Shown in pieces: positions 1 through 48,961 of a stretch of DNA of 64,000 bases. The notes under the pieces were generated by a model. That model was given only the letters and a program-made list of their open reading frames with translations. It was not told the DNA's origin and did not search any database. The position numbers and the translations under genes are program-made. The stretch comes from Podarcis cretensis (Eukaryota). Every line of letters begins with the position of its first letter. The stretch's first letter is position 1. The DNA is taken from assembly GCA_951804945.1 (NCBI GenBank), contig OX638152.1, positions 105,338,001 to 105,402,000 of the forward strand. Direction: 5' to 3'.

Positions 1-3000
1 TTCACCCTTGCTAGTATTCCTGTTTCTGTGGGAGCTTGTTCTAAAAGGGGTGGAAATGGATCAGAACTCCTCGCTCCTGCAATTGCCATGTTGTGCTGCC
101 TTTTAGATTTCATGATTTATAACACAATAACTGTTCCAGATGCATAGTATTACAAAATGTAGTCTATTCTGCAATCATGCAAAAAGGAAATAAACACCCA
201 GAGAGTTTTTCTAGTAGATCTTTTTTTTTTGGGGGGGGGGCGGTTTAACAGTTTGTTCTGAAGACTAAAAAGCATGGAGATTTAAAGAGTTCACAGTTAC
301 AAATGTATGGGGGTAAGGGATTGGGGTTCCCTTTTTAAAACACATCCCAAAAAAATATTTGAACTATTTTAGCACTTTGGCTGTTGTGGTTCCTACTAAA
401 ATTTGAATTTGAGGTATCAACATCAGGTGCACTGATAACTTTCTACACTTGGATTATTTACCACTGTGAAAAGAAAAAGACACAGAAATCCAACACATCA
501 GTTACTTTTCCTTGTGCAGGGAGATTTTTATTTTTCCCCATGGGAAAGAATTCAAACATGAGATTCCTCCACCTGCAGCCTGATGTGATATAGTCCCAGA
601 AAAGCTGTACCGTACCATATGACTGCGACACTTGTGTAGGAAAGGTGAAGAGCCAGCTAATAACGCAGTCGCTTCCTTTTAAAGCCCATGTTATTTGAGG
701 GAAAGAGTATTATTTCACGCTAGCGCCAGCATCTTGAGGCATCCTGGCCTGCTGAGACTATGTGGGTCGAGATTCGCATTCATTTCTGAGGAAGTATTTT
801 TATTTAACTCCCTTAACCTGGGTTTCTAGCACTGGTACATCTGTACCATTGCATGAAATGGAGCAATTCAACGAGCCTTTCCCTATCCTAGCATTTTCAA
901 GCCAAAAATGGAGGAAAGTGACATTTCTGCCCGAGAAAAGACAGGAGAAGCTTCACAGGAGGTATTTAAGCAGGGGCTGGATGGCCAACTGCAGCTCCCA
1001 CACAGAACATGAGGCTGGAGCAGAAGCTCTAAGATTCTGTCCTAAGCTCCAGGATGGAGGTTTCCATTACTAGCTGCAGATTGGAAGTAGCTCCTCAACT
1101 TGTACCCAAGGAGCCTCATACCCACAACCCACAGAAATCAGTCACCTACCACTTGATTCAAATATCTTTTTCGAGAACATGTAACGCCAGGGGCACTATT
1201 ACTTATGGCCTAAACCTTGGAGCCCCTGATTTTCCCAGGTGGAAAAAAAGGAGGGAAAATTTAGTCTGCTGACTCCATAATCCCCTCTGCCACACCATGT
1301 TACAGATCCTGCAGTTAGTTCCCATCCATGGTTAGCATTTTATTACATATATACAGAAACCACAGAACACCTTTTTAAGGGAGGAAATTCCTCTTTCAGT
1401 TTTATATAAATTTCAGGACAAAAAGATATTATGCAGTATTACAATGTAAAAAAGGAAAACAAGTCATGTTTGCCAACTGGGATTTTACACTACATTAAAA
1501 TCTTTAATGATTCAGCACCATCAATACATGTGTTATTTGCTCTAGATGGATAATTACATGGTTTTAGCAAAATATAATTCTCTAAGATTTAAGTAACTAT
1601 TACACTAGATAAAAATGGTTTTGGAGAGGGTGGGTTTTAGAGGGCTTGGTATTCTAATTACTCCATTTTACATTTTTAAGACAGACATGATCTAGACAAA
1701 TGCCACTAGGAAAAAAAATATCCATTTTAAATGCATGAATTATAAATCAAATTACCTTCCGTTCTGCCCTAACCTGATATTCTTCCTCCAAGTGTCACTT
1801 TTTGTTAAAATCAATTTCAAATTTTGAGTATTGCTCAGCTCACCTAATTGATAGCAACACACATTCATGATAAGCATAAAATGAAATTGTTTCTGTAATA
1901 CAACTCAATAGTAGGAATTGAAGAATCGTTCAGTGACCTTGCAAGGAGGTTTGTAGTTATTAAAAGACATAACTCTGCTGGATCAGTGACTGCAGTATTT
2001 GGGTCTAAGGCTTGCCAGATATCAGCACCCCAGCCTCAGCAGAGCAATTGGAGATTAGGCCATCATAATGACGTACCAGGGAAGTGTGGATGGCAATCTA
2101 TTATATGGGCGGGGGGGGGCATGCTGGAGGCCCACAGGATTCCTTTTGGTGGAGACAGCTTCTGCTCTCCCCTCAACATTGGTTCCAAGAGCCGCACTCC
2201 CCACCCCCAGAAATGAACAACAGCCTATTCACCTACATAGGAACTTGAAACACGAGCCATTCAGCGACACCATTCGAGTGGGAGTTCAAAATGCGTATGG
2301 GCACATTTTGTGTTCTGTTTCTTGGTGACACTGGAGTGTGACGAAGTGTAACTTGCAGCAGGACAGAATGTAGGGGAGTGGCCTTCTGAAGCCCAATTCC
2401 ACACATGTTTACTCAGAAATAAATCCCCTTAATGTCAATGGATCTTACTCCACATATGTTTGCATAGGATTGCTGCGAGCGGCAGAAAGACAAAAAAGAG
2501 CAGCAACCTTAAGTATATGAAATCATGCAGAAATGAAAATCTCAAACCCATTATAATTTCTTTTCAGTGCACCAAGAGCAAGAGAGCAACCTTCCCCATT
2601 AAGCCTGGAACATAAATGAGTCTCTGTCACTTCTGATACACTTAGATCATTCCCCTGTGACTCAGAACAGCATCTTAGAAGCAACCCGGGACAAAACATA
2701 CAACACTGGCAACGTGCTTAGCAGCCATTATCCAGAGCCTGCACAAGGTTGTTTTGTCATAGGCAAACATCATTCCACAACTACCACTATTTGTACACAG
2801 AAGAAAACAACCCCAGGTCAAGTCCTGTTCCATAGGGCTTAGACCCAATCTACTCATCATGCAGAATAAATGAAGGGGTGGAACTTTGAAATGTACCGCT
2901 TCAAAGTTTAGGTGAGGGTAGGTCATGCTTTTTATGCTCCCTGCATGTAATAGACCAGCACATCAACAAGAGCTGAATCCCAATGTATATAGTATTTTAC

Positions 3001-4812
3001 TACCATGCAGAGACCTTGCATAAAACAGTGTTTGAAAAAAATATGACACCCCCCCACACCTGCAAACTGAAGTGGAACAATCTAGAATGCAACAACTTCA
3101 TTCTGAATTAGGTGTAGATTGAGACACACCCCAGTGAAGTCCTCAGGTTTCAGCAAAACTGAGCTTAAACGTAAGCCTCCTGGTCCAGGCTATTGAGATG
3201 CCATCTATAGCCCACTGGCTCGACAACAGCCCTCTCAAATAAGAAGGGCATGATTTGGAAATACTGAGACCCTGGGAGATGACTTCCATAGAATCATTAT
3301 TCCAAACCAATTAGAATCATTATTCCAAATCTTCCTCCTTGAAGAAACTAATTTCCTTCTCTGAATTAAAACCAATAACCAATGCACAACATTCCACACT
3401 CGTTTGAGTGGCATGCAACCCACCCCAAGATGAGCATGTTTAAATTAGTCATTACAGGTAGACAGTTGTGCATGTGCTTCAGTCTCTACTAGACTTTAAA
3501 AGTAATTAATTTTGGCTGGATCATTGCCATTCCACAAACATCTGCCATCAGTTTCAGGTAAAAGCATAATGTAGCCCCACATGTACTTGCACCATAAAAA
3601 TTAAACCATTTCAGAGCAGATTTACACATACATGTACGCTACTAGACAGTTCAGCGGTGCAACCCTTGATAAATGCTGGCTGAATGGATGAACTGACTCC
3701 ACTGAAAAGCACTATAGTCAAGAGAATGTACAATATTAAAATGTTATCCATTGTATTCAAACTCTGATGGTCCATTCATACATGCAAGTCACCATTTGAT
3801 TTGCTGCCATCAAATGAGGAGCACGCATGCCTGCAGGGTCAGCCTGAAGTCCTTGGCTACAAGGCAAAAATCAAAATGTTGATTCATGCCAAGAATAAAT
3901 ATTGTGCTTTCACTTCCTTTTTATTTATTTGTTTGTATATTTGAATCCCATGAAGTGGAGCTAAACATATAAATTAAACATACACGCAGCTAAACATATA
4001 TTCTCAATCCAGTTGAAGTTAAGCACAATCTGAGCCAACAGGGGGTGGGGGGCGGGTAACGGCACGTGGCTAAAACCTTTTCTGTGGAATTTCAAAGTGT
4101 TTAACTTTCATCAGATAGTAGCAATCTAGCAAATCTCACTGCAGAATTTATGTCTCTTTTAACTGCTTAGTTCTTTTGGTCATGAAGAAAAAGTGGCAAG
4201 GGCACACAGTACTCTTATGTCAAAAATAAATATTATGTGTACAGTATATCTCTGTGTACAGATATATTTAATAGGACATTCTAAACATGAAAACATACAT
4301 TTGCAAACAGAATTCACCTTGACATACACAAATGGAGAGCTACATTCACTGCATCTGCAAATTTCCTCGAATCAAACCCCATATGTGTAGATATATTTTT
4401 TATTAAACTGAACAATATCTACCATCTCCACTTAGCAGTGAGGGATGGGCCTTCCCATTTTCCCTGGGAATATTACAGTGAAACCTCAGACAAAGCCCCT
4501 CTGCTGGCCAATTTCCAGTTCTGAGAAACCTGATCAAACATAGTGGTTCTTAGGTGTAAATGTGCACCAGTTTCACAGTACCGTAATGCTTCATGGGTGT
4601 GCCATTTTTTTTTTTTTATTTTGCTGACCTAACTTCCAATCAACCTGCTACCGATGAACTGAAACAAGAATCAGGCCCAAATGCAGTCAGGTTTTTGAAC
4701 CCTGGGCCAACCCATCTTGGGGGATGCCTGGAGAGAGGCCTCTCAGCAGGTTTCACTGCAGACCTAAAATGCAACTGGGCAGTGAGGGAGTTTCGGGTGA
4801 TTTCTAAAAGTC

Positions 4813-4821
4813 TCCTACCTG
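4813..4821 (-). other. PCDH17: Splice donor of PCDH17 exon 1; intron 1 runs off the left edge of the window
   Basis: Minus strand reads CAG|GTAGGA directly after MSIIQ. I found no match to the expected next exon (TDNFPAEPNY...) in 1-4800. Confidence 0.85.
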
Positions 4822-7419
4822 AATTATGGACATCCGGCTCGGGGGAGCCTCACTGACGTTAGTCCCTTGCCCTGTGAAGCTGGTGTGGCACCCCACATGC
4901 CCCTGCGGCACAGTCAGGTTGTTGGAGGCAGGTTTCAGGTACATCACCTCCGACCTGGGCGAGCTCAGGGGCAGCCGGGTCTGGTAGTCAAAGTACATGG
5001 GGGACGTGGCCAAGGAGGGGCTGCTGACCACGTTCATGACATTGAGGGGCCCCCGGCTGTCCTCCCCTTCACTGGGCACGAGCATAATGTCGTTCTTGCT
5101 AATCTTCTTCTTCTTGCCCTTGCTCCCGCCGCTGCCTCCGCCCCCACCTCCGCCACCACCCCCTCCACCCAGCTGGGGGTGGCTGTACTCAGCAATGCGG
5201 CAGTTGTAGGTGCGGATCTCCTTGTTCTCCCGCTTGCACTTCACGGCAATGGTGATCATAGCAGCCAGGAGGATGATGGAAACGGTGCTCAGGGTGACGA
5301 TCAGAGGCAGGGACAGGTCCCAGTGGGGTCGCCTGTGCTGCTCGCCATTCACCTGGGGCTCACCTGCTTCAGGCAGAGGTCCAGCCAAGGCCCGCACAAT
5401 CAGCTTGGCCACTGCGGAAAGGCTGGGCTTTCCGTGGTCACTGACCTTGACCACCAGCTCAGCCACAGGGCTCAGCTCTTCCCAGTAAGGGTGCAGTGTG
5501 CGGATCTCCCCACTGGTTGGGTCCATCTCAAAGAGGTGCTCCTCATTGCCTTCCACAATCTCGTAGGTGAGGCGCCCACTTTCCCCAAAATCGCTGTCCA
5601 TGGCACGGACAGTGCCCACAGGATACCCAACGCCAGCGTTCCGCGGGACCTGGAGCTCGGCGGTGTCATTGATGAGGGCTGGCAAGACAATGAGAGGAGC
5701 GTTGTCGTTGACATCGAGGACAGTGACGCGGACGGTGGCGTTGCTCTCTCGGTGGGGGGAGCCAGAGTCTTTGGCCAACACATGGAACTCAAAGTGCTTG
5801 GTCTGCTCGTAGTTGAAGCTACGCAAGGCATAGATGGCGCCATTGGTGGGGTTGACGGAGACATAGGTGTAGATGGAGACGTCACCCACGTGCCCTGGCA
5901 GGATGGAGTAGGACACTGTGCCGTTCTGCCCCAGGTCTGGGTCCTTGGCCAGCACAGAGCCCAGGTACTCCCCGGGGATGTTGTTCTCAGGGACCTGCAG
6001 CACGTAGAGGCTCTTACTGAAGCGGGGAGGGTTGTCGTTCTCGTCCAGGATCCTGACAGAGAAGGATTTGGTGGAGTTGAGTGGAGGGCTGCCCCCGTCT
6101 CTCGCCAGGATGGTGACATTGTACTCGTCCTGCACCTCTCTGTCCAAAGGCCGGTCTGTCACCACGGTGTACAAGTTGTCATAGTTCTCCTCCAGGGTGA
6201 AGGGCACGGCCCCGTCCCCGCCGCTGCCATCCCCTTGCACCCGGCACTGCAGCTGCCCGTTTTTGCCCGAGTCACGATCCGTCACTCTCACCAGGGCGAT
6301 AACGGTGCCCGGAGGAGCCGCCTCGCTCAGCGCCCCTTGGCGCACCGAGACGAAGCCGATGGTGGGCGCGTTGTCGTTGCGGTCGACGAGGCGCACGGTG
6401 ACTTTGCAGTGGGCCGGGATGGGGTTGGGCCCCAGGTCGCGCGCCTGCACGTCGATCTCAACGAGGCCGCCCTCCTCGTAGTCCAGGTTGCCCTTGACGC
6501 GGATCAGGCCCGTCTGCGGGTCGATGCTGAAGAGCTCGCGGACCCGCTCGGGCGCGTAGCCGCTGAACGAGTAGAGCACCTCGCCGTTGGTGCCCTCGTC
6601 GGCGTCGGTGGCGTTGAGGTCGATGACGGCCGTGCCCAGCGGCGCGTTTTCGGGCAGCTCCACCACGTAGGAGGCGGCCTCGAAGACGGGGCTGTTGTCG
6701 TTGGAGTCGATGAGGCGCACGTTGAGCTGCACGGTGCCCGAGCGCGGAGGGTCGCCGCCGTCGAGCGCCGTCAGCACGAGCGTGTGGTGGCTCTGCTCCT
6801 CGCGGTCGAGCGGCTTCTGCACCACCAGCTCGGGGAACTTGGTGCCGTCGCCGCGGGCCTTGACGTCGAGCGAGAAGAGGCTGTAGTCGTCGCGGGTGAG
6901 CACGTAGGTGCGCAGCCCGTTCTCGCCGGCGTCCGGGTCGTGGGCGCTGGCCAGCGGGAAGCGGGTGCCCGGCGCCGCGTTCTCGGAGATGTCCAGGTCC
7001 ACCTGGTCCGACGGGAAGGCGGGCGCGTTGTCGTTCAGGTCCTGGATCTCCACCTTGATCATGCAGATCTCCTGGTCGTTGGCGAACACCTCGAGCGACA
7101 GCTGACACTTGGCGCTCCGCCGGCACAGCGCCTCGCGGTCCAGGCGCTGCTTGGTGTACAGCAAGCCGCTCTCGCCGTCCACGTCCAGCAGGTGCGGCGC
7201 CGAGTTCTCCAGCACGCGGAAGGTGGACTTGGCGCCGCGGGCGCGCTCCAGGGACGGCAACCCGCCGCCCGCGCCGGGCTGCAGCCGGGCATCGCGGCCG
7301 ATGTTGCCGATCACCGTGCCGGCGCCCTGCTCCTCGGGCACCGAGTAGTTCAGGTTCTTGAGCGTCAGGGCAGGCAGAGCCCAGCACAGCAGCAGGCAGC
7401 AGGCCGAAAGGGGCCACAT
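4819..7419 (-). CDS. PCDH17: Protocadherin-17, first coding exon: signal peptide, six cadherin repeats, transmembrane helix and start of the cytoplasmic tail; downstream exons are outside the window
   Basis: The 867-codon frame starts MWPLSACCLLLCWALPALTLKNLNYSVPEEQGAGTVIGNIG. It has repeated DxNDN/LDRE/AxD cadherin motifs, a TM segment LPLIVTLSTVSIILLAAMITIAV and a tail KCKRENKEIRTYNCRIAEYSHPQ...RMSIIQ that matches PCDH17 as I recall it. The exon ends at ATT CAG|GTAGGA (GT at 4818-4817), a phase-0 donor. Confidence 0.96.
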
Positions 7420-8590
7420 CCCCGGGCGCGCCCACCAAGCCCCCGACGAGGCCGCCCGCTCTGCCGTCGCTCCCCGCGGCCGGGAGTCGCGCCCGCCGCC
7501 TCGCTGCGCCCCGGCTCGCCGCCGCCGCCGCCGCCGCCTCGCTCAAGTTCCAGGACCTGTTGCTCGCCAAGATCCGCGCAGACCCGCCAGCCCCACCATG
7601 GGGGCAGCGCGCCGGCGGGTCCCCCTGGCTGCCTCCAACTTCGGGGTGCGGGGCGCGAGCGGGGCCGAGAGAATAATTCAGAAGCACGCAGCTCCTTTTC
7701 CGGACCCGAAGCAGAAATCTCCTCAAATGCAGGGACTTGAGGGCGCGAGGGCGCGCGTGTTCCTCGCTCCCAGGCGCCTGGCCCAGAAGCGCAGCCCCGC
7801 CAGCGCGGCCGGGGAGGGGCGAGCAGCCGCCGGGCGGGCGGGCGGGGGGGGGGGCCGCAGTCGCTCGGCCAAGACTTGCGGGGGGGGGGGGCGGCGGGGA
7901 AGCGACGCCTGACGGCTCCGGCGGCCGGGTTTCCTCAGCGAGCCTCTTGCTGCAGTCGCCGATGAAATCTCGCCGGCTGGGCTGCTGCCGAGCGCCGCAT
8001 CTCTCCGGCTGGACCCGCCGCCCGCTTGGCCGCCTCCTGCGGCGCCAGCAAGAATGTTCTCCGTGGGAGGGGAGGCAAAGCGCGGTGTCCAGAAGCCCCC
8101 GAAAGAGCCGGGTCTCTGCAGGTTTGTAGGTCCTGCACACCAGATCCTCCTCCGGGAGGAAGGGGGAGAGAAAGAGGATTCCGAGCCCGACAGAGCCGCT
8201 CCTCCTCCGGATCTGCAGTGGGTCTCTCGGCAAACGAGACGGGGAGGGGGGTCGGTTAAAAAAAGAAAAAATCAGCCGCCGGCCCCGTCAGAGGCACGCC
8301 GGGGGTTGCTGCGCCTGGGAGATCGGGAGGAGCCGCCGCCGCTGCTGCTCGTGGCGCCTCCGCCGCCGCCACCGCGACCAGCCCCTCGCCCGCCCGCCCG
8401 CCCGCCCGCCTCTCGCTGCTGCCTCTGTGCGTGTCTGCGAGAGCTCTGCACTTTCCTCGCTGCAGTTTAATTTCAGTTTGCCTGCCTCGCTCTCTGTCTT
8501 GGCCGTCAAGAGGAAATCAACAGGCAACTCATGGCTGGGCGCATAGAATGGAAGGGGGGAGGGGGGAAGCGAGAGGTGGGCGCTGGGTGG

Positions 8591-8630
<40 letters not shown>
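8591..8630. repeat. (GT)n(GA)n microsatellite upstream of PCDH17
   Basis: Read directly from the sequence. Confidence 0.95.
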
Positions 8631-8631
<1 letters not shown>

Positions 8632-10129
8632 GCGCACACGAAGTCTCTCCCTAAAAGGGGAAACAGCCTTTGCATTCACGAGGCAGCGCCTTCAATCGCC
8701 CCTCTTTTCTTCCTCGCGCCTCCATCACCTCCCCACCGCAAATGCCACTTTTGTCCTCTTCACCGAGTAGAGCTCACACAGCTTGGCTAAAAAAAATATT
8801 TTCGAATCCTTTTATTTAAAAAAAAAATGCTCTCAGAAACTGGGAGGGAAAATCCTGAGGCTGCAGCAGCCAGCAGCTTCGGTGCATTTTCACAAGCTTT
8901 TTAAAGAAATACGTGTCTGTGGAGAGACAGCAAAATGGGGAGAGATTTTTAAGGGGGGTGGAGTTGGCTGGCGGGAGCGGGGGTTATTGCTGGTGGATGA
9001 AGGGTCTTCAAAACAAACACGCGCACAACTCCCTCCCTTGGACGGGATGTCAGGATTTCACAGAACAGTCTTTACTCTCTCCCGGCTGTCGTCCATGGAA
9101 GCCAGAGCCAGAACTGCAGGTGTTTCGAAGCGTCTGGGTGAGTCAAAGCTCGCCGAGCAAAAACAGAAAGCACAGAGCACCCAGTCAGTGGCGCCTCACG
9201 TTGCTCCGGGGCAGGCGAGAGTTGCAGCTTCCAGGGCTCTGGACACGCAACACACACCCCCCCCCCGCAGTCCGGGCTGGAGGATGCAATTCTACAGTCT
9301 CAGGAGCGCCGAGTGGGAGCAGGAAAAGAGGCTGCTTTTAAAAATAATGCCATTTGTTGCAATCCACGCAGAGCTGGGGGGAGCCCAGGTGTGGGGAGGG
9401 TGCTGGCCTCGGATCCACTTCTGCTCGCCTCGGCCCCTGGAGGTTGAAGGAGGGTCCGAGAGGCGAGAAGCAGCCTGGAATCCCCACCCCACCTCCGCTG
9501 CTTTTGGATGCAAGGTTGTTGTGCCCCCTTGTTTTCCTGGGTATCACGTGTGATAGAAACACCCAGAGTTCAGATGGAGTGGGGGGGGGGCGGGAGAGAA
9601 ACACGCCGCACGCTCGCACTGCGCACACACGCAATCTGAAAAGCACAGCTCGGGCAAGTTTCGGCACTGCTTGGATGTACGTGAGAAGCAGTTGTCTTCT
9701 CTTGCTGTTATTTTGTATCTCTATGTAAGTCCTGAGGAGGATCGACGGGCCAGGAGCGAATCCTGCAATCCGCTGGAAGGCGAAGGCTGCTTCGGTCGCT
9801 TCCCACGCCTGAAAGCAAAAAATCCTCTCGCGGGTGGGTCAGTGGGTCAAACCCCACGCGCAGCAGGAGGGCGCGCGGAGCCCGCAGCGAGCAAATCCAT
9901 CCCGCTTCGATCCCGCAGCAGGTAACGGCTGGGAAGACCGGAGGCAGATGCAACAGTTGGATGTAGCCGAGGAGGAGGAGGAGGAGGAGGATCGGCAGTG
10001 GCGCCTCCCCCTCCTCCCTTTCTGCAGCATTCGCCGGATGCGGCAGCCGCGCAGCCCCGCGCTCCCTCCCTCCCTCCCTCGCGCTCGCTCGCTCTCTCTC
10101 TCGCGCGCGGGCTCCCGCCTCCGTCTTGC

Positions 10130-35940: not shown

Positions 35941-36927
35941 ACCCAAGGACCAAATCTGTGGAATAGTAGCTTGACATCCTTTTTAGACCATTTAGGGAAA
36001 GAAAAGCTGACTTTGGGAGAGTGACCTGGAACAGAGAAACGGCATGGGAGGGAAAATTCAGCCTATTTTCCTCCTGTGAAGTTTCAAAAGAAAGTTGTTT
36101 TTTATTTTATGTATTTGAAGAATTTACACCGCACCTTTACATCATTCAGTGGCCAAAATGACTTAAACAAAATAATGAAAACATCAGTTAATACAAGCCA
36201 AAAATACAGTATGACCAAACACATCCAAAACTAGGTTAGAAAAGCAGATCAGCTAACAAGCAGTGACAATTAGGAAAACACCAAAAGACAAAATAAAAGT
36301 TTTACTTGCCATCTAAATGGGCGCAGAGACAGTAAACTGCTTTGCTTGTTAACACCACCAATAAGCCAAATTGTGTTTTTTTATTTATTTTAAAAATAGT
36401 CATATTTTGGTTTCTGTTAAAAATCTTCCTTATTATCCTTCTCAACATACTTCATGCACCTTTTCACTACAGCCTGAATGGTGCTGAAGTCACACAAATT
36501 TACTTATTTATTGGGGGCAGTGAGTGGTGGAGGAGCTTAAATATATCAAATGTTCTGAGCTTAAAGGACAGAAAAGATTTGCTTTGAATGAAGCCAAAGT
36601 TACTTTTAATGAAGTTTAATGAAGTTCAAAGGCAGATCCTGGAACAGTCTTTGAAACTCAAGTTTCAGTCCTTGAATAAAACCAATCTCACATTTTAGAA
36701 CATGCGCAGATAGTTTCCCAAAGCTGAAGTGTTGGTCCAAATACAGAGCAGTGATGAGAGAATAAGGGAGAGAATGTCTGTCCAGGGGATGGAGGGACAA
36801 AGACAAAGAGAAATGGCTGTTGCTGCCAGAGGTCCTTTAACCAGGAACTTCACCATCTGAGGCTGGGGAAAAGAACAGGGTCTTTTGACTTTCCAATTGA
36901 ACTCAACATGAACCTCACGGTTTCTTT

Positions 36928-38527
36928 TCTTTTCATTCCCTCGTTTCATCAACCTCCTCTCACCTCCCTTTTTGTATTCCACTTCTATTAATTATTTCAG
37001 CAATTCCTTTCCATCTTTCTCTATTTTCTGTCATATAATTATCTTAATTTATTTTAACCTTATCTTCCATTAATGCCATAATACTTATTTATACTTAACT
37101 CCTTATAACATTTCTACTAAAGCCATATAATTTCATTCCAACATTTTTCTAACACTCATTAATTTTACAATATTTCTATAAATAAACTTTAAACATTTTC
37201 CAATCTTCTTCCACCGTCTCTTCTACCTGGTCTCGGATACTGCCAGTCATTTCCGTCAATTCCATATAGTCCATCAACCTGGTGATCTTCTGTCCGAGGC
37301 TCTTAACTCTTTTCCAAGTCCCTTCTGCATGTCTTCTTCATATTTATACATGCACTTTACTTTGTCTTCTGTTGATCTTGTTCTTAATTTCCTTCCTTTG
37401 ATGCCGAGGAGTAGATCTCGGGGAGGCTCCAACCTAGCAATGTTTTTATTCCTTCTCGACAGGTCAGCCAAATCTCCGTAGTTAGCACTATAGTCCAAAA
37501 GATGTTTCAGGACGTGTTTCAAAATCCCTCCAAAACTGAAAGTCCCCACAACTCCAATCTCCTCCTGGCCCAAGTCCAAATCCCAAAGATCAGTACATCC
37601 CTGCATGAGGGAATCTATCCAACTTTCCTTCTCAAATCCAAGCAGGGTTCCAATCCTCAAAATCTGACTTTCTCTAAATTCAGTCATAGAAGGCAACAAC
37701 TTATATTCATCAAATTGCCTCTGTAAGACTGGAACTCTCTCCACTTGTATTACTTTAGGTTCAACAACAACTTTCCCCCTTGCCTTCTCAACAATTTGCC
37801 ATGTCAAAGTAGATTCCTGAAACAATTCCTGAATAGTTTCTGTATAGATGTTCACTTTTTGTCCCAAATCAGTCACTTTTTGTTCCAAATTGTCAGTTTT
37901 GATAGTCAACACATCCGTCTTCTTCTGAAGCTGTTCCAATGAAGCACTTATCTTGCATAATGCTTCTTCTGTCGACATTCTTACCAATCCAAGGCTTCTT
38001 CTGTCGACATTCTTACCAATCTAAGGTCAATCCCTGGTTCTCACAGTTTTTTATCTCTGCAGCTGGTAATCCCCCCAGCTCCACTCCTGTAACAGTTTCA
38101 AAGGCTCCCTCTAGAGGGAAACAATTTCTATTTGTATCAATCCTTTTAAACACAGTTCAAGCAACAAAATTAGTTTCAATTTTCGGTTACTTTTACTCCT
38201 TTTTAAACGCAGAAGGAAACAATGCAAACAATATATTTCTCTTATTTGCTATCTGTCCACATACGTTTTATTCACAGTCAATGAACTTTCCCAAAACGTC
38301 AGTCTTACTAGCAGCCCGTTTCTGGTGGTAATTTATCTTTCTTCACTCTCTCTCCTGCAGGCTTACACAATCCAAAATTTCCCCCCTCTTCTCCTGCTTC
38401 CAAGAGGGGGTTTAATGATTTTAACCGATGGAGGTTTAATCCTTTACAGAAGACTTTCCGAGACTTTAGCTTGCAGCCTCTTTGCTTCAGCCTATTTACA
38501 AAAGGGGAAGGCGGACTTCTTGTTTTA
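36928..38527 (-). mobile_element. Non-autonomous L1-derived retroelement A (HAL1-like): partial 5'UTR, ORF1-like frame, last ~40 codons of ORF2, 3'UTR
   Basis: 17-bp TSD aacctcacggtttcttt at 36911-36927 and 38528-38544. Region 37276-37149 translates LMDYMELTEMTGSIRDQVEETVEEDWKMFKVYL*KYCKINEC*, homologous to the L1 ORF2 end at 24140-24267. No endonuclease or RT is present. Confidence 0.85.
37274..37978 (-). CDS. L1 ORF1-like coiled-coil protein (234 aa from ATG) of element A
   Basis: Uninterrupted frame with a heptad-like N-terminus LEQLQKKTDVLTIKTDNLEQKVTDLGQKVNIYTETIQEL, located between an L1-type 5'UTR and the ORF2 tail. C-terminal motifs are shared with the ORF at 47938-48504. Confidence 0.6.
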   Translation of the reverse strand: MSTEEALCKISASLEQLQKKTDVLTIKTDNLEQKVTDLGQKVNIYTETIQELFQESTLTWQIVEKARGKVVVEPKVIQVERVPVLQRQFDEYKLLPSMTEFRESQILRIGTLLGFEKESWIDSLMQGCTDLWDLDLGQEEIGVVGTFSFGGILKHVLKHLLDYSANYGDLADLSRRNKNIARLEPPRDLLLGIKGRKLRTRSTEDKVKCMYKYEEDMQKGLGKELRASDRRSPG

Positions 38528-38925
38528 AACCTCACGGTTTCTTTGTTGCTACTTAGCAGGATGGTTCAGCAGCCTTGGAAGCAAGTCGATTTTTCTTTTT
38601 CTTTTTGATTTCTTTAAGCTTTATGAAGATACTCAAGACAGGGGGGTTTATTACAGCGGAAAACCAGACAAAAACAATCACTTCAGTAGATCGCAAGCAC
38701 CCAAACATTAAAGGTTTCTTTCAGGGTCTTTTCACATGTTATGCTGTTGAAACAGCAGAGTTGCCATTAAATGTAAACACAAAAGGGAACCACAGCTGAT
38801 CCTGGATGCTTGATCACTAGGGTTGCTAGGCAACCAGACCAAAATTGCCCGGCTTGACTTTTCACCTGGGAAAATTGCCAGATGTTCTTCGGTAAAGACC
38901 AGGATGTTGGCTGGTTGCTTTTTAA

Positions 38926-47124: not shown

Positions 47125-48961
47125 GACTTCCGGGTTAGCGCGATCTGGTTAATGGCGGATTCCCTCCGAGCTCCGGAGGGAATTGGCTCCGCTGGAGAAG
47201 GGTTCTACCGCGACGGCGACGTGGGGACCCTCAGAAACCGCAGGCGCTGAAGCCTGCGGACTTGGTGACTCGGCGGGCACCTAAAGCGCCCCCCGACCCA
47301 CGAAGAGCCTTTTTAAAGGCTGCGGAGAGGGTACGGGGAGTGGCGTGGTGCTGTGAGTGGACCGCTACTGCAGTGGAGCGAAGCCGCGAGCCATGGCCGG
47401 AGACCGCTGACTTTCTTCCCTGAAATTCGGACTTTAATTAATCCGTGAGTAAAATGGAATTTGGACTTTAAAATTTCTACCTTTGAATTCGGTACGATCG
47501 GGGGATGTGCTAAAGGGAAGTCCGCACCCCCCTGCTTACAGAAGATTTAAAGCAAGGATCGGAGAACTAAGGTGGAGAGTTTTTTCTTTTTGGTGTTTTT
47601 TAAAAGATAATATTTTCATGAATTTGACAGAAGAAGATTTGTGCTGGAGAGTAAGACTGGAATTTTAGAAGCTTTTGTTTAAACCCCCCCCAGACCCGGG
47701 AGTGTCCTGTATGTGAGCTGGAGAAAAAGGAACAAGGAGTTTGACAGCTGTCAAAGGAGTTGTCAAACGGGCAGTGAAAGTTAAAAATCTTATTATTTAA
47801 CACCTTTCTGGACTAAATTTGCTACATTTAAATTAAAGTGGTTGGGAACAAAGTAGTGAAATAATAAAGTAACGGACTGTTGGGAAAAGACTATTAAGTA
47901 ACCAGAATCCCCCTAGGGGAAACATTGAAACACTACAATGACTGCAGATGGAAAATTACAGGCAGAGATAGAAAGAATGTTTTTTCTCGTGGGAAAGTTG
48001 CAGGAGCAGACTACGGCTATGAGTAAACAACTTATAACCTTGAACTCTAAAATAAGTGACTCTGCTGAATGCACAATGGACTTGACCGGGAAAAAATCTG
48101 CAGCTGAATTAGAAGAGACAACTTCGGAGCAGGAGGAGAGGGAACAAGGGCCAGTACAGATGGAGAGTACCAACCAGAAGCCTACATTGTCAGAACACAA
48201 AGAAAAAGACCTTTGGATTACAAATCTGCGAAAGATGCGAAAGAGGAGGGAGGAAGCCCCCGGAACACTTGGAATATTTGAATTTAAAAGAAACAAGAAA
48301 TATGATTGGGGCTTCCTCTTTGAGTATGGATTGGCTGACCTTTCGCAGCAGCTGGTACTAAGTACTTTGGATGGAAGAAAATCTGATGAGACTGAGCTAG
48401 AACTCCTTCGAGACCCGAGGACCAACAAAGAGGGCTACCAACAAAATCGCCAGAGAGAGACTGACAGAGATTTAAAGGCCTCAGATGTGAGGAATCCAGG
48501 CTAAAAACAGTTTTTGTGGACATGGGGACATTGGGAAGGGACAGAAACCAGGGTGGGGGGGGGAAGAATTTTTTTTAAAAAATGTTTATGACCTTTGTGT
48601 TTGATTATTATGACCTATTTTTAAGATAAAAGGGAAATTCGTGGAAGGAATTCGAGTCGACCTTAGAAAAGGATTTAATATTTATAAGAAAACTGGATAA
48701 GTAAAATTTGGCCAAGTAATAAGAATTAAGTATTTCTTTAAATATATATATATATAATAATAATATGTAAAGGATGAGAGATATGAACTTGCTGAGCTAA
48801 TTTAATTGAATTAGGATGTATGAAGGGGGGGTGGGGGAAGGTCAAGAACTGGGGTTAGGAAAGTAAGGATATGAAACTTTATATGTGTGGTCTTGGTCTG
48901 TGTGTGTGTGTCTGTGTCTATAAAATGTGAAAACTCAATAAAAATTTTATTTAAAAAAAAA
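47125..48961 (+). mobile_element. Apparently full-length non-autonomous L1-derived retroelement B (HAL1-like), 1.84 kb
   Basis: Starts GACTTCCGGG...AATGGCGG with a ~300-bp CpG-rich 5' end. It has a single 188-aa ORF, a G-rich 3' tract, AATAAA and poly(A). 17-bp TSD caaatatcttgggccag at 47108-47124 and 48962-48978. Confidence 0.88.
47938..48504 (+). CDS. ORF1-derived protein (188 aa) of element B
   Basis: ATG-initiated open frame with an N-terminal heptad pattern LQAEIERMFFLVGKLQEQTTAMSKQLITLNSKI. Motifs YGLADLS and DLKASDVRNPG* parallel those of the element A ORF. Confidence 0.55.
   Translation: MTADGKLQAEIERMFFLVGKLQEQTTAMSKQLITLNSKISDSAECTMDLTGKKSAAELEETTSEQEEREQGPVQMESTNQKPTLSEHKEKDLWITNLRKMRKRREEAPGTLGIFEFKRNKKYDWGFLFEYGLADLSQQLVLSTLDGRKSDETELELLRDPRTNKEGYQQNRQRETDRDLKASDVRNPG

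Follow-up and report, generated by a model that had tools for sequence, protein, structure and literature searches.

The 64,000-nucleotide stretch of Podarcis cretensis DNA analysed here (the window) carries on its minus strand, from 38527 to 36928, an insert that an initial annotation had described as a second non-autonomous, ORF1-only LINE-1 (L1) derivative with its ORF fused directly to the end of ORF2. The locus raises the questions of whether this is a lone damaged L1 copy or a member of an amplified family, from which L1 it came, and why its reading frame is still open. The insert lies between exact 17-bp target-site duplications (TSDs), as had been reported, at 38528..38544 on the 5' side and 36911..36927 on the 3' side of the minus strand; by an arithmetic estimate, a 17-base match between two 160-base windows has a chance of about 1e-6. 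The last 6 bases of the TSD, and 12 of its last 14, also agree with the 5' UTR of the family where this copy was truncated.

Along the minus strand, the 3' part of an L1-type 5' UTR (37979..38527), of which the first ~390 bases (the promoter end) are absent, leads into the 234-codon ORF (37274..37978) that had been annotated, which derives from L1 ORF1, starts at an internal methionine of the parental protein, retains its coiled coil, one half of the RRM and a CTD that has diverged, and has 238 codons in the subfamily. A private duplication of the start region, absent from the reference copy L087, places a 9-codon upstream ORF (37981..38010) ahead of it. Residues 1-68 (37775..37978) make up the N-terminal helix with its heptads; no other part reached a pLDDT >50 in the model, and none inside the ORF is more constrained. 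The junction left by an in-frame deletion of 42 RRM codons lies at 37516..37536, and the junction between the ORF1 tail and the ORF2 end, where ~4 kb of the parent was removed between breakpoints with short imperfect homology, lies at 37269..37287. The ORF2 remnant (37149..37277; 42 codons plus stop) is 75% identical to an L1 3' end elsewhere in the 64-kb window and behaves like a 3' UTR, decaying as the lineage proceeds. The ORF stop TGA (37276-37274) overlaps this remnant out of frame; the proposed direct fusion holds for the junction and the overlap, but the frames differ and there is no in-frame fusion. The internal stop noted earlier in the remnant is a TAG at 37178-37176, and it is a family trait found in 49 of 50 copies readable there. 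The L1 3' UTR (36928..37148) is tailless: it ends at an internal AAAGA, ~175 bases short of the family poly(A) signal, and the same AAAGA begins the TSD.

The window copy spans approximately bases 390-1970 of a ~2.15-kb family element, so that what had been called the element is a family member with a TSD but only a copy clipped at both ends. Without the promoter end, the ~175 3' bases and the poly(A), it is therefore dead, a doubly clipped member of a large family. It probably arose by internal priming within an A-rich stretch of the 3' UTR, the 5' end being truncated at the microhomology. Tailless retropseudogenes from internal priming have been described in therians and anole (PMC5322556) and, like the window copy, show 3' truncation at an internal A-rich site with the TSD retained; this likeness accounts only for the end of the window copy and not for the family. 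When relatives were examined for a full-length L1 at this locus, contigs from three organisms entered the same clipped ends from both flanks and none of them spanned the insert. No empty-site allele was seen among the joints listed for this locus from these three organisms; a fourth gave no flank cover. About 30 kb from the element, which lies upstream of it on the same strand, the window holds a large, protocadherin-like exon of cadherin repeats (4804-7419, minus strand), which we take to be PCDH17-like. A 5'-truncated 3' end of a young L1 (23592-24681, plus strand) lies between 165-base direct repeats of 98% identity, far above the usual TSD length.

The genome searched comprised 1.5 Gb in 51 contigs. 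A 301-base junction query yielded 2,609 candidates, and all of the 40 that were scored were 96-100% identical to it; the exact 23-base junction had 719 matches (control 0), and a degenerate pattern over the last ten ORF codons and the stop had 2,795 (control 0). The junction is not confined to this locus, which rules out a one-off internally deleted L1 copy and upholds the description of a multi-copy, non-autonomous ORF1-only derivative. Complete copies are ~2.12-2.16 kb long with a poly(A) signal, an A tail and TSDs. Among eight copies of subfamily group A, to which the window copy belongs, four had poly(A) and a TSD of 11-18 bases, one had only 8 bases and three were unscorable; among ladder copies (see below) 9/12 had poly(A) and a TSD of 11-18 matched bases. 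Forty near-complete copies fell into three A subfamilies, with copies 1.2-1.5% from the majority sequences and the subfamilies 4-6.5% apart, and the window copy belongs to A1. A domain search found no endonuclease or reverse transcriptase domain in the element, while both were present in L083 of the same genome, and an autonomous L1 was thereby ruled out; many intact ORF2 frames of 1,245 aa exist in this genome. Some family copies (L284, L277, L009) were inserted into L1 copies or into one another. One young L1 with intact ORF1 and ORF2 (L081 / L117; G000:C15, ~43.667-43.673 Mb) sits inside a copy of family C, near the same 5' UTR position as the cut of the window copy, which may be a preferred endonuclease site. 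Contigs from sequencing runs bridge the junction; the run type was guessed as RNA, so these were not counted as transcription.

The parent was sought with the uncut ORF2-end pattern, which had 374 matches, 20 of which were fetched and led to a subfamily (P) with a 3' end ~80% like that of the element. One whole copy gave 30 relatives, four of them with an intact ORF1 of 384-386 aa. Compared with 20 L1 regions and one young L1, every part of A matched subfamily P best or nearly so, with identities of 84-86% in the 5' UTR, 73-84% in the ORF and 79-87% at the 3' end. The parental ORF1 is an L1 ORF1p: a profile of 19 ORF1s matched the RRM-CTD of human ORF1p (2ldy, E 6e-4), where a PDB search with the single parental sequence gave no ORF1p match, and the nine best Foldseek rows for its low-confidence model were all human ORF1p (E 5e-3 to 0.12, none <0.001). 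The homologues of this genome's L1 ORF1 that carry a species name are Podarcis proteins. Neither the element nor the parental ORF1s matched an L1 ORF1 family in Pfam, a search with PF02994 was uninformative in that it returned nothing in the genome or in the controls, and 18 family ORFs had no match at E 0.001 among 4,416 candidates of a protein collection. Because the lizard ORF1s and all 19 homologues tested fall below every L1 ORF1 family of Pfam, a screen relying on Pfam would overlook them. Many L1 families with open ORF1s coexist in this genome (L235-L264).

Alignment of the consensus to L1 of the same genome mapped three deletions, namely the first ~49 codons of ORF1, the 42 RRM codons (spanning the b2-b3 loop, b3, a2 and b4 by profile alignment to human ORF1p) and ~4 kb from the ORF1 tail to the ORF2 end. 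The loss of ORF2 had been placed at a single junction, and it was indeed one deletion, but one that begins inside ORF1, ~54 codons before the parental stop. The short imperfect homology common to the two parental breakpoints suggests that the junction may have formed by a template switch. A comparison with L114 pointed to a fourth deletion, of ~40 bases close to the end of the ORF, but this was rejected as an artefact of a repeat in the parental ORF1 tail. That tail (L166, L171-L173) contains a tandem repeat with Ser-Pro motifs, whose first unit the family has retained right at its end; L114 itself (2670-8900) is a parent-type L1 with the 5' half inverted, as in twin priming, and the whole 5' UTR present. 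One locus, L285, the only hit of a narrowly drawn pattern, shows the junction, has lost the N-terminus but only 15 RRM codons, has an open frame of 261 codons and falls on the stem between parent and A (100/100). The family originated from one L1 subfamily of this genome, with L285 as an intermediate copy and the RRM deletion growing from 15 to 42 codons, and we hold this identity and descent with high confidence.

The window also contains element B, with an ORF of 188 codons (47938..48504, plus strand), which turned out to be a far-derived member of the same lineage. The degenerate pattern matched copies of both the A and the B type, and its first 30 matches by position formed a graded series of ORFs and decaying ORF2 remnants, here called the ladder. 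An ORF tree was built from 16 representatives, that is five majority sequences and 11 ladder loci drawn from the 16 with a long ORF, five near-duplicates of B or L226 being left out. All 16 formed one clade (100/100), sister to the parent copy L171 and with B nested deepest, and this held when six other L1 families were added. Three alternative groupings were rejected with AU p 7e-6 or less, including B with another L1 family (p 7e-6) and A with the parents (p 2e-34). Four-taxon counts for B lean to another L1 family over A with two of three outgroups (39 vs 30, 38 vs 28), which we read as long-branch noise or saturation because the AU test rejects that grouping. The B ORF stops at the homologous place and aligns to A at z 8-13 versus 2-4 to the parents, and its RRM junction is shared (z 6.7 to A2, 3.8 to A1, 0.6 to C, none to the parents). 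Further losses accumulate in nested order along the ladder (a heptad, 17 codons of the CTD, additional parts of the RRM), and proteins at its opposite ends are 28% identical. The DNA behind the B stop has no significant alignment left to the A remnant (z 0.5); the junction of B looks different because its ORF2 remnant has decayed. The claim of a second lineage with a junction unlike that of B is therefore not supported: judged by tree and alignments, element B and the subfamily of the window copy are one lineage on one ladder.

Members of this lineage have travelled very unequal distances. Measured in the ORF as changes per site from the clade ancestor, A lies at a distance of 0.06-0.11, C and L229 at 0.45, mid members at 0.7-1.2 and the B group at 1.56-1.68, and at 173 third positions there were 77 private differences in B versus 10 in A2. 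Median end branches, taken from best-hit samples and therefore biased low, were 1.1% in A, 0.9% in B, 1.5% in C, 1.4-2.3% in the parents and 0.14% in the youngest L1. With end branches alike and distances unequal, subfamilies of the same age have moved away from the ancestor by amounts that differ more than tenfold. Serial copying is the probable cause; the 5' start motif was within reach at 13/30 ladder loci, whereas one of six extended parent 3' ends reached the parental 5' UTR.

The 5' end had a partly separate history. The first 300 bases of L210 are 84-95% identical to L1 family O235 and 75-82% to its ORF neighbour L211, whereas from base 400 on the values are 58-70% and 79-87%, respectively. 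Because L210 follows L211 beyond base 300, the 5' head is a later swap; by these identities, the promoter head was taken from another L1 family on the branch to L210, L222, L227, L234 and B. The swap accounts for 5' UTR trees that suggested the opposite ladder direction, which was thus rejected, and 5' UTR rates for L210 and beyond were therefore not used. Such an exchange contrasts with a report that lizard L1 5' UTRs are rarely replaced (PMC5381506).

The ORF itself was intact in 20/40 A copies and at least 179 aa long at 16 of the 30 position-ordered ladder loci. Across the lineage the frame is open over 179-241 codons and the majority sequences were open in all five families built, where ~41 nonsense changes would be expected on internal branches under neutrality. 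The stop codon varies between TGA, TAA and TAG, and TGG, which the pattern allows, occurred in none of the 100 matches listed. Indels were multiples of three in 30/40 cases in the ORF and in 35/196 in the UTRs, and omega over the ladder was 0.73 (16 representatives; 2dlnL 18 vs omega 1), both from copies picked for an open frame (11 of 30 loci and five majority sequences), which favours the result. Sub-trees gave 0.69-0.89, of which one (0.89; four non-stem sub-trees) was not different from 1 and one was borderline. By codons, omega was 0.44 in 1-25 (2dlnL 17), 0.71 in 26-60, 1.09 in 46-110, 0.88 in 111-160 and 0.71 in 161-230; the value of 0.26 for the last 11 codons was discounted as circular because the search pattern had selected those codons.

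Within the A group the signal was weaker. The dN/dS among A subfamilies was 0.41-0.49, with two of three intervals below 1 and that of A2-A3 including 1 (parents 0.25-0.33), and a codon model gave omega 0.57 for A (2dlnL 5.0) versus 0.35 for the parents (2dlnL 76). Fixed changes numbered 43.5 nonsynonymous and 29.5 synonymous versus 157 and 61 private ones (Fisher p 0.058; 0.038 without CpG). The changes private to single A copies, with 11 stops and an N/S of 2.6, look neutral. In family C, 11/29 copies were frameshifted at a G run and scattered on a star-like tree, five sharing the same change, and a frameshifted source in this family is possible. Overall the ORF was held open under weak constraint, strongest in the first heptads. 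The TGATG overlap was also considered as a site of coupled translation of the remnant and was rejected, the remnant being stopped in nearly all A copies and decaying along the ladder.

What the surviving protein could do was judged from sequence and models. Hydrophobic residues occupied 8-12 of 13 heptad a/d positions in all 11 proteins checked. The structure model of the element's protein was a helix to residue 68 and unreliable beyond, and a fold search with this low-confidence model gave no match. A mixed trimer predicted for residues 1-100 of this protein and two coiled coils of the parent, the one combination covered, scored 0.69, the best of three controls reaching 0.01; runs agreed in at least 75% of contacts, with a partner pLDDT of 71-72. 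The mark for this score was reached by 51/78 solved and 2/108 mismatched microbial pairs, and by 39/65 and 2/126 eukaryotic ones. Since the partner is a close cousin of the solved human trimeric coiled coil and can pass by likeness, the score shows compatibility only. In mammals, binding or transposition depends on conserved residues of the deleted RRM segment and on R261 (PMC6428221). In the lizard protein, the segment that holds R215 in the human RRM loop is missing, and the arginine that lines up with the human R261-R262 pair is gone; by its sequence, this protein should not be a functional RNA-binding ORF1p.

The frame was likely kept open because the surviving helix helps the element to hitch onto the intact L1 machinery. 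An internal L1 promoter would make a short polyadenylated mRNA, its translation would yield a helix joining the ORF1p trimers of autonomous L1, and entry into the trimer would bring the element's own mRNA into L1 particles, where the ORF2p of an intact L1 would insert the element in trans by target-primed reverse transcription. Mobilisation in trans by L1 ORF2p is suggested by the marks of this process on the copies and by the intact 1,245-aa ORF2 frames. Short elements would often insert whole and so give rise to further copies in their turn, a chain that would account for the very fast drift on the branch leading to B. As a whole, the explanation by a trans-copied ORF1-only L1 derivative acting via its coiled coil and not via RNA binding appears to us rather probable, and the coiled-coil role of the shrunken protein, taken by itself and resting on the models, only slightly less so. 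More tentatively, and with some doubt, the ORF1p may have been stripped to a coiled-coil 'grappling hook' that binds no RNA, enters autonomous trimers and tows its own mRNA; freed of most constraint and inserting whole, the lineage would have passed through chains of copies made from copies at more than ten times the pace of its slowest sister branch, with its promoter head swapped on the way. If this is true, parent, intermediate and each step of decay can be read in one genome. A finding from cultured cells, that HAL1-like RNA requires functional ORF1p (PMC11260458), counts against the coiled-coil explanation.

The likeliest of the alternatives, though itself unlikely, is that translation matters and the peptide does not, the open frame keeping the mRNA stable and ribosome-bound so that ORF2p is captured as proposed for Alu RNA. 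An omega near 1 over most of the ORF, the low identity between ladder ends and a model that is disordered past residue 68 and matches no fold would all suit it, as would the strong conservation of the frame and a published ribosome model (PMC11260458); the lower omega in codons 1-25 and 161-230 would not, nor would a heptad register held over 1.6 changes per site. It is improbable that the ORF is a relic in an element that moves like a long polyadenylated SINE, its open frames being due to chance or sampling. The weak p values within subfamily A, the selection of open copies and the family C frameshifts point that way, but five of five majority sequences are open where ~41 stops were expected, and the adjoining ORF2 remnant decays freely over the same tree. 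Just as improbable is an RNA-blind coiled coil that mainly poisons the trimers of L1, with the host tolerating or even favouring it in the way suggested for L1TD1. Such a role fits the modelled mixed trimer and the dominant-negative idea stated for L1TD1 (PMC4161310), but selection acted on source lineages while inserted copies are neutral, and no single conserved locus is evident. That the window element and B arose independently by deletion, each with a junction of its own, is the least probable of all, as the same stop position, the shared RRM junction, the graded intermediates and the single clade stand against it, while the vanished post-stop similarity and the nearness of the first ~300 bases of B to an L1 family other than P speak for it, the latter being the foreign head of the later swap.

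The family stands beside known ORF1-only elements. The closest are mammalian HAL1 elements, including rat RNHAL1 and guinea-pig HAL1 (PMC5753468, PMC2241872, PMC5322556, PMC3627910, PMC8535693), which likewise derive from L1, have ORF2 deleted and the ORF1 frame kept, and have poly(A), TSDs, thousands of copies and an L1 promoter. In the lizard, the L1 origin by ORF2 loss is seen in the 42 ORF2 codons left and the match of P to 5' UTR, ORF1 and 3' end, amplification with one shared junction in the 719 exact and 2,795 degenerate matches, poly(A) and TSDs in the family (the window copy having a TSD without a tail), and selection on the open ORF1 frame in the ladder omega of 0.73, weak within subfamily A. 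A complete mRNA-binding ORF1p, by sequence and model, is absent (42 RRM codons gone, CTD motifs changed, unstructured past residue 68). Unlike HAL1, the family lives in a lizard, was cut inside ORF1, deleted the N-terminus, the RRM core and later most of the CTD, has its parent and intermediates preserved, and swapped its promoter head. It is HAL1-like, of separate origin and no member of any mammalian HAL1 family. Bao and Jurka (2010) are said to have described faster evolution of the HAL1 ORF1. No HAL1 in a squamate was found in the literature searched, to which neither the text of that paper nor Repbase belonged, and the half-L1 is now extended to a reptile.

The published explanation of HAL1 is that ORF1p binds its own mRNA (PMC2241872, PMC11260458, PMC3627910), and an engineered HAL1 proxy, ORF1mneoI, consisting of the L1 5' UTR and ORF1, was moved in trans by ORF2p (PMC11260458); unlike its product, the lizard protein is without the R215-loop segment and the arginine of the R261-R262 pair. 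HeT-A, other ORF1-only Jockey-clade telomeric elements and Ag-Sponge are, like the lizard family, ORF1-only non-autonomous LINEs; an ORF1-only Jockey-clade protein is thought to multimerize with that of its autonomous partner (PMC5786205), and ORF1-only lineages can beget new ones (10.1101/2025.06.09.658640). They differ in belonging to other clades, HeT-A is telomere-specific, and they are not known to have lost the RNA-binding domain. L1TD1 likewise has a coiled coil of ORF1p origin, for which entry into the trimers of ORF1p has been proposed (PMC4161310), but it is a single domesticated host gene, whereas the lizard family is mobile. Since the RNA-binding core was lost early and the spread continued with an open frame, the lineage is a natural deletion series, which separates three candidate roles of ORF1, namely RNA binding, trimer joining and translation itself. 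For annotators, its drifted subfamilies pass recognition and resemble separate families or orphan genes. Finally, two Podarcis muralis gene models named TRIM39-like (P0011 / P0012) combine a RING, a B-box and a coiled coil with the last ~250 residues of an L1 ORF1p that is 63% identical to the parental ORF1; known as gene models only, these may be a real TRIM-ORF1p fusion or a prediction artefact.
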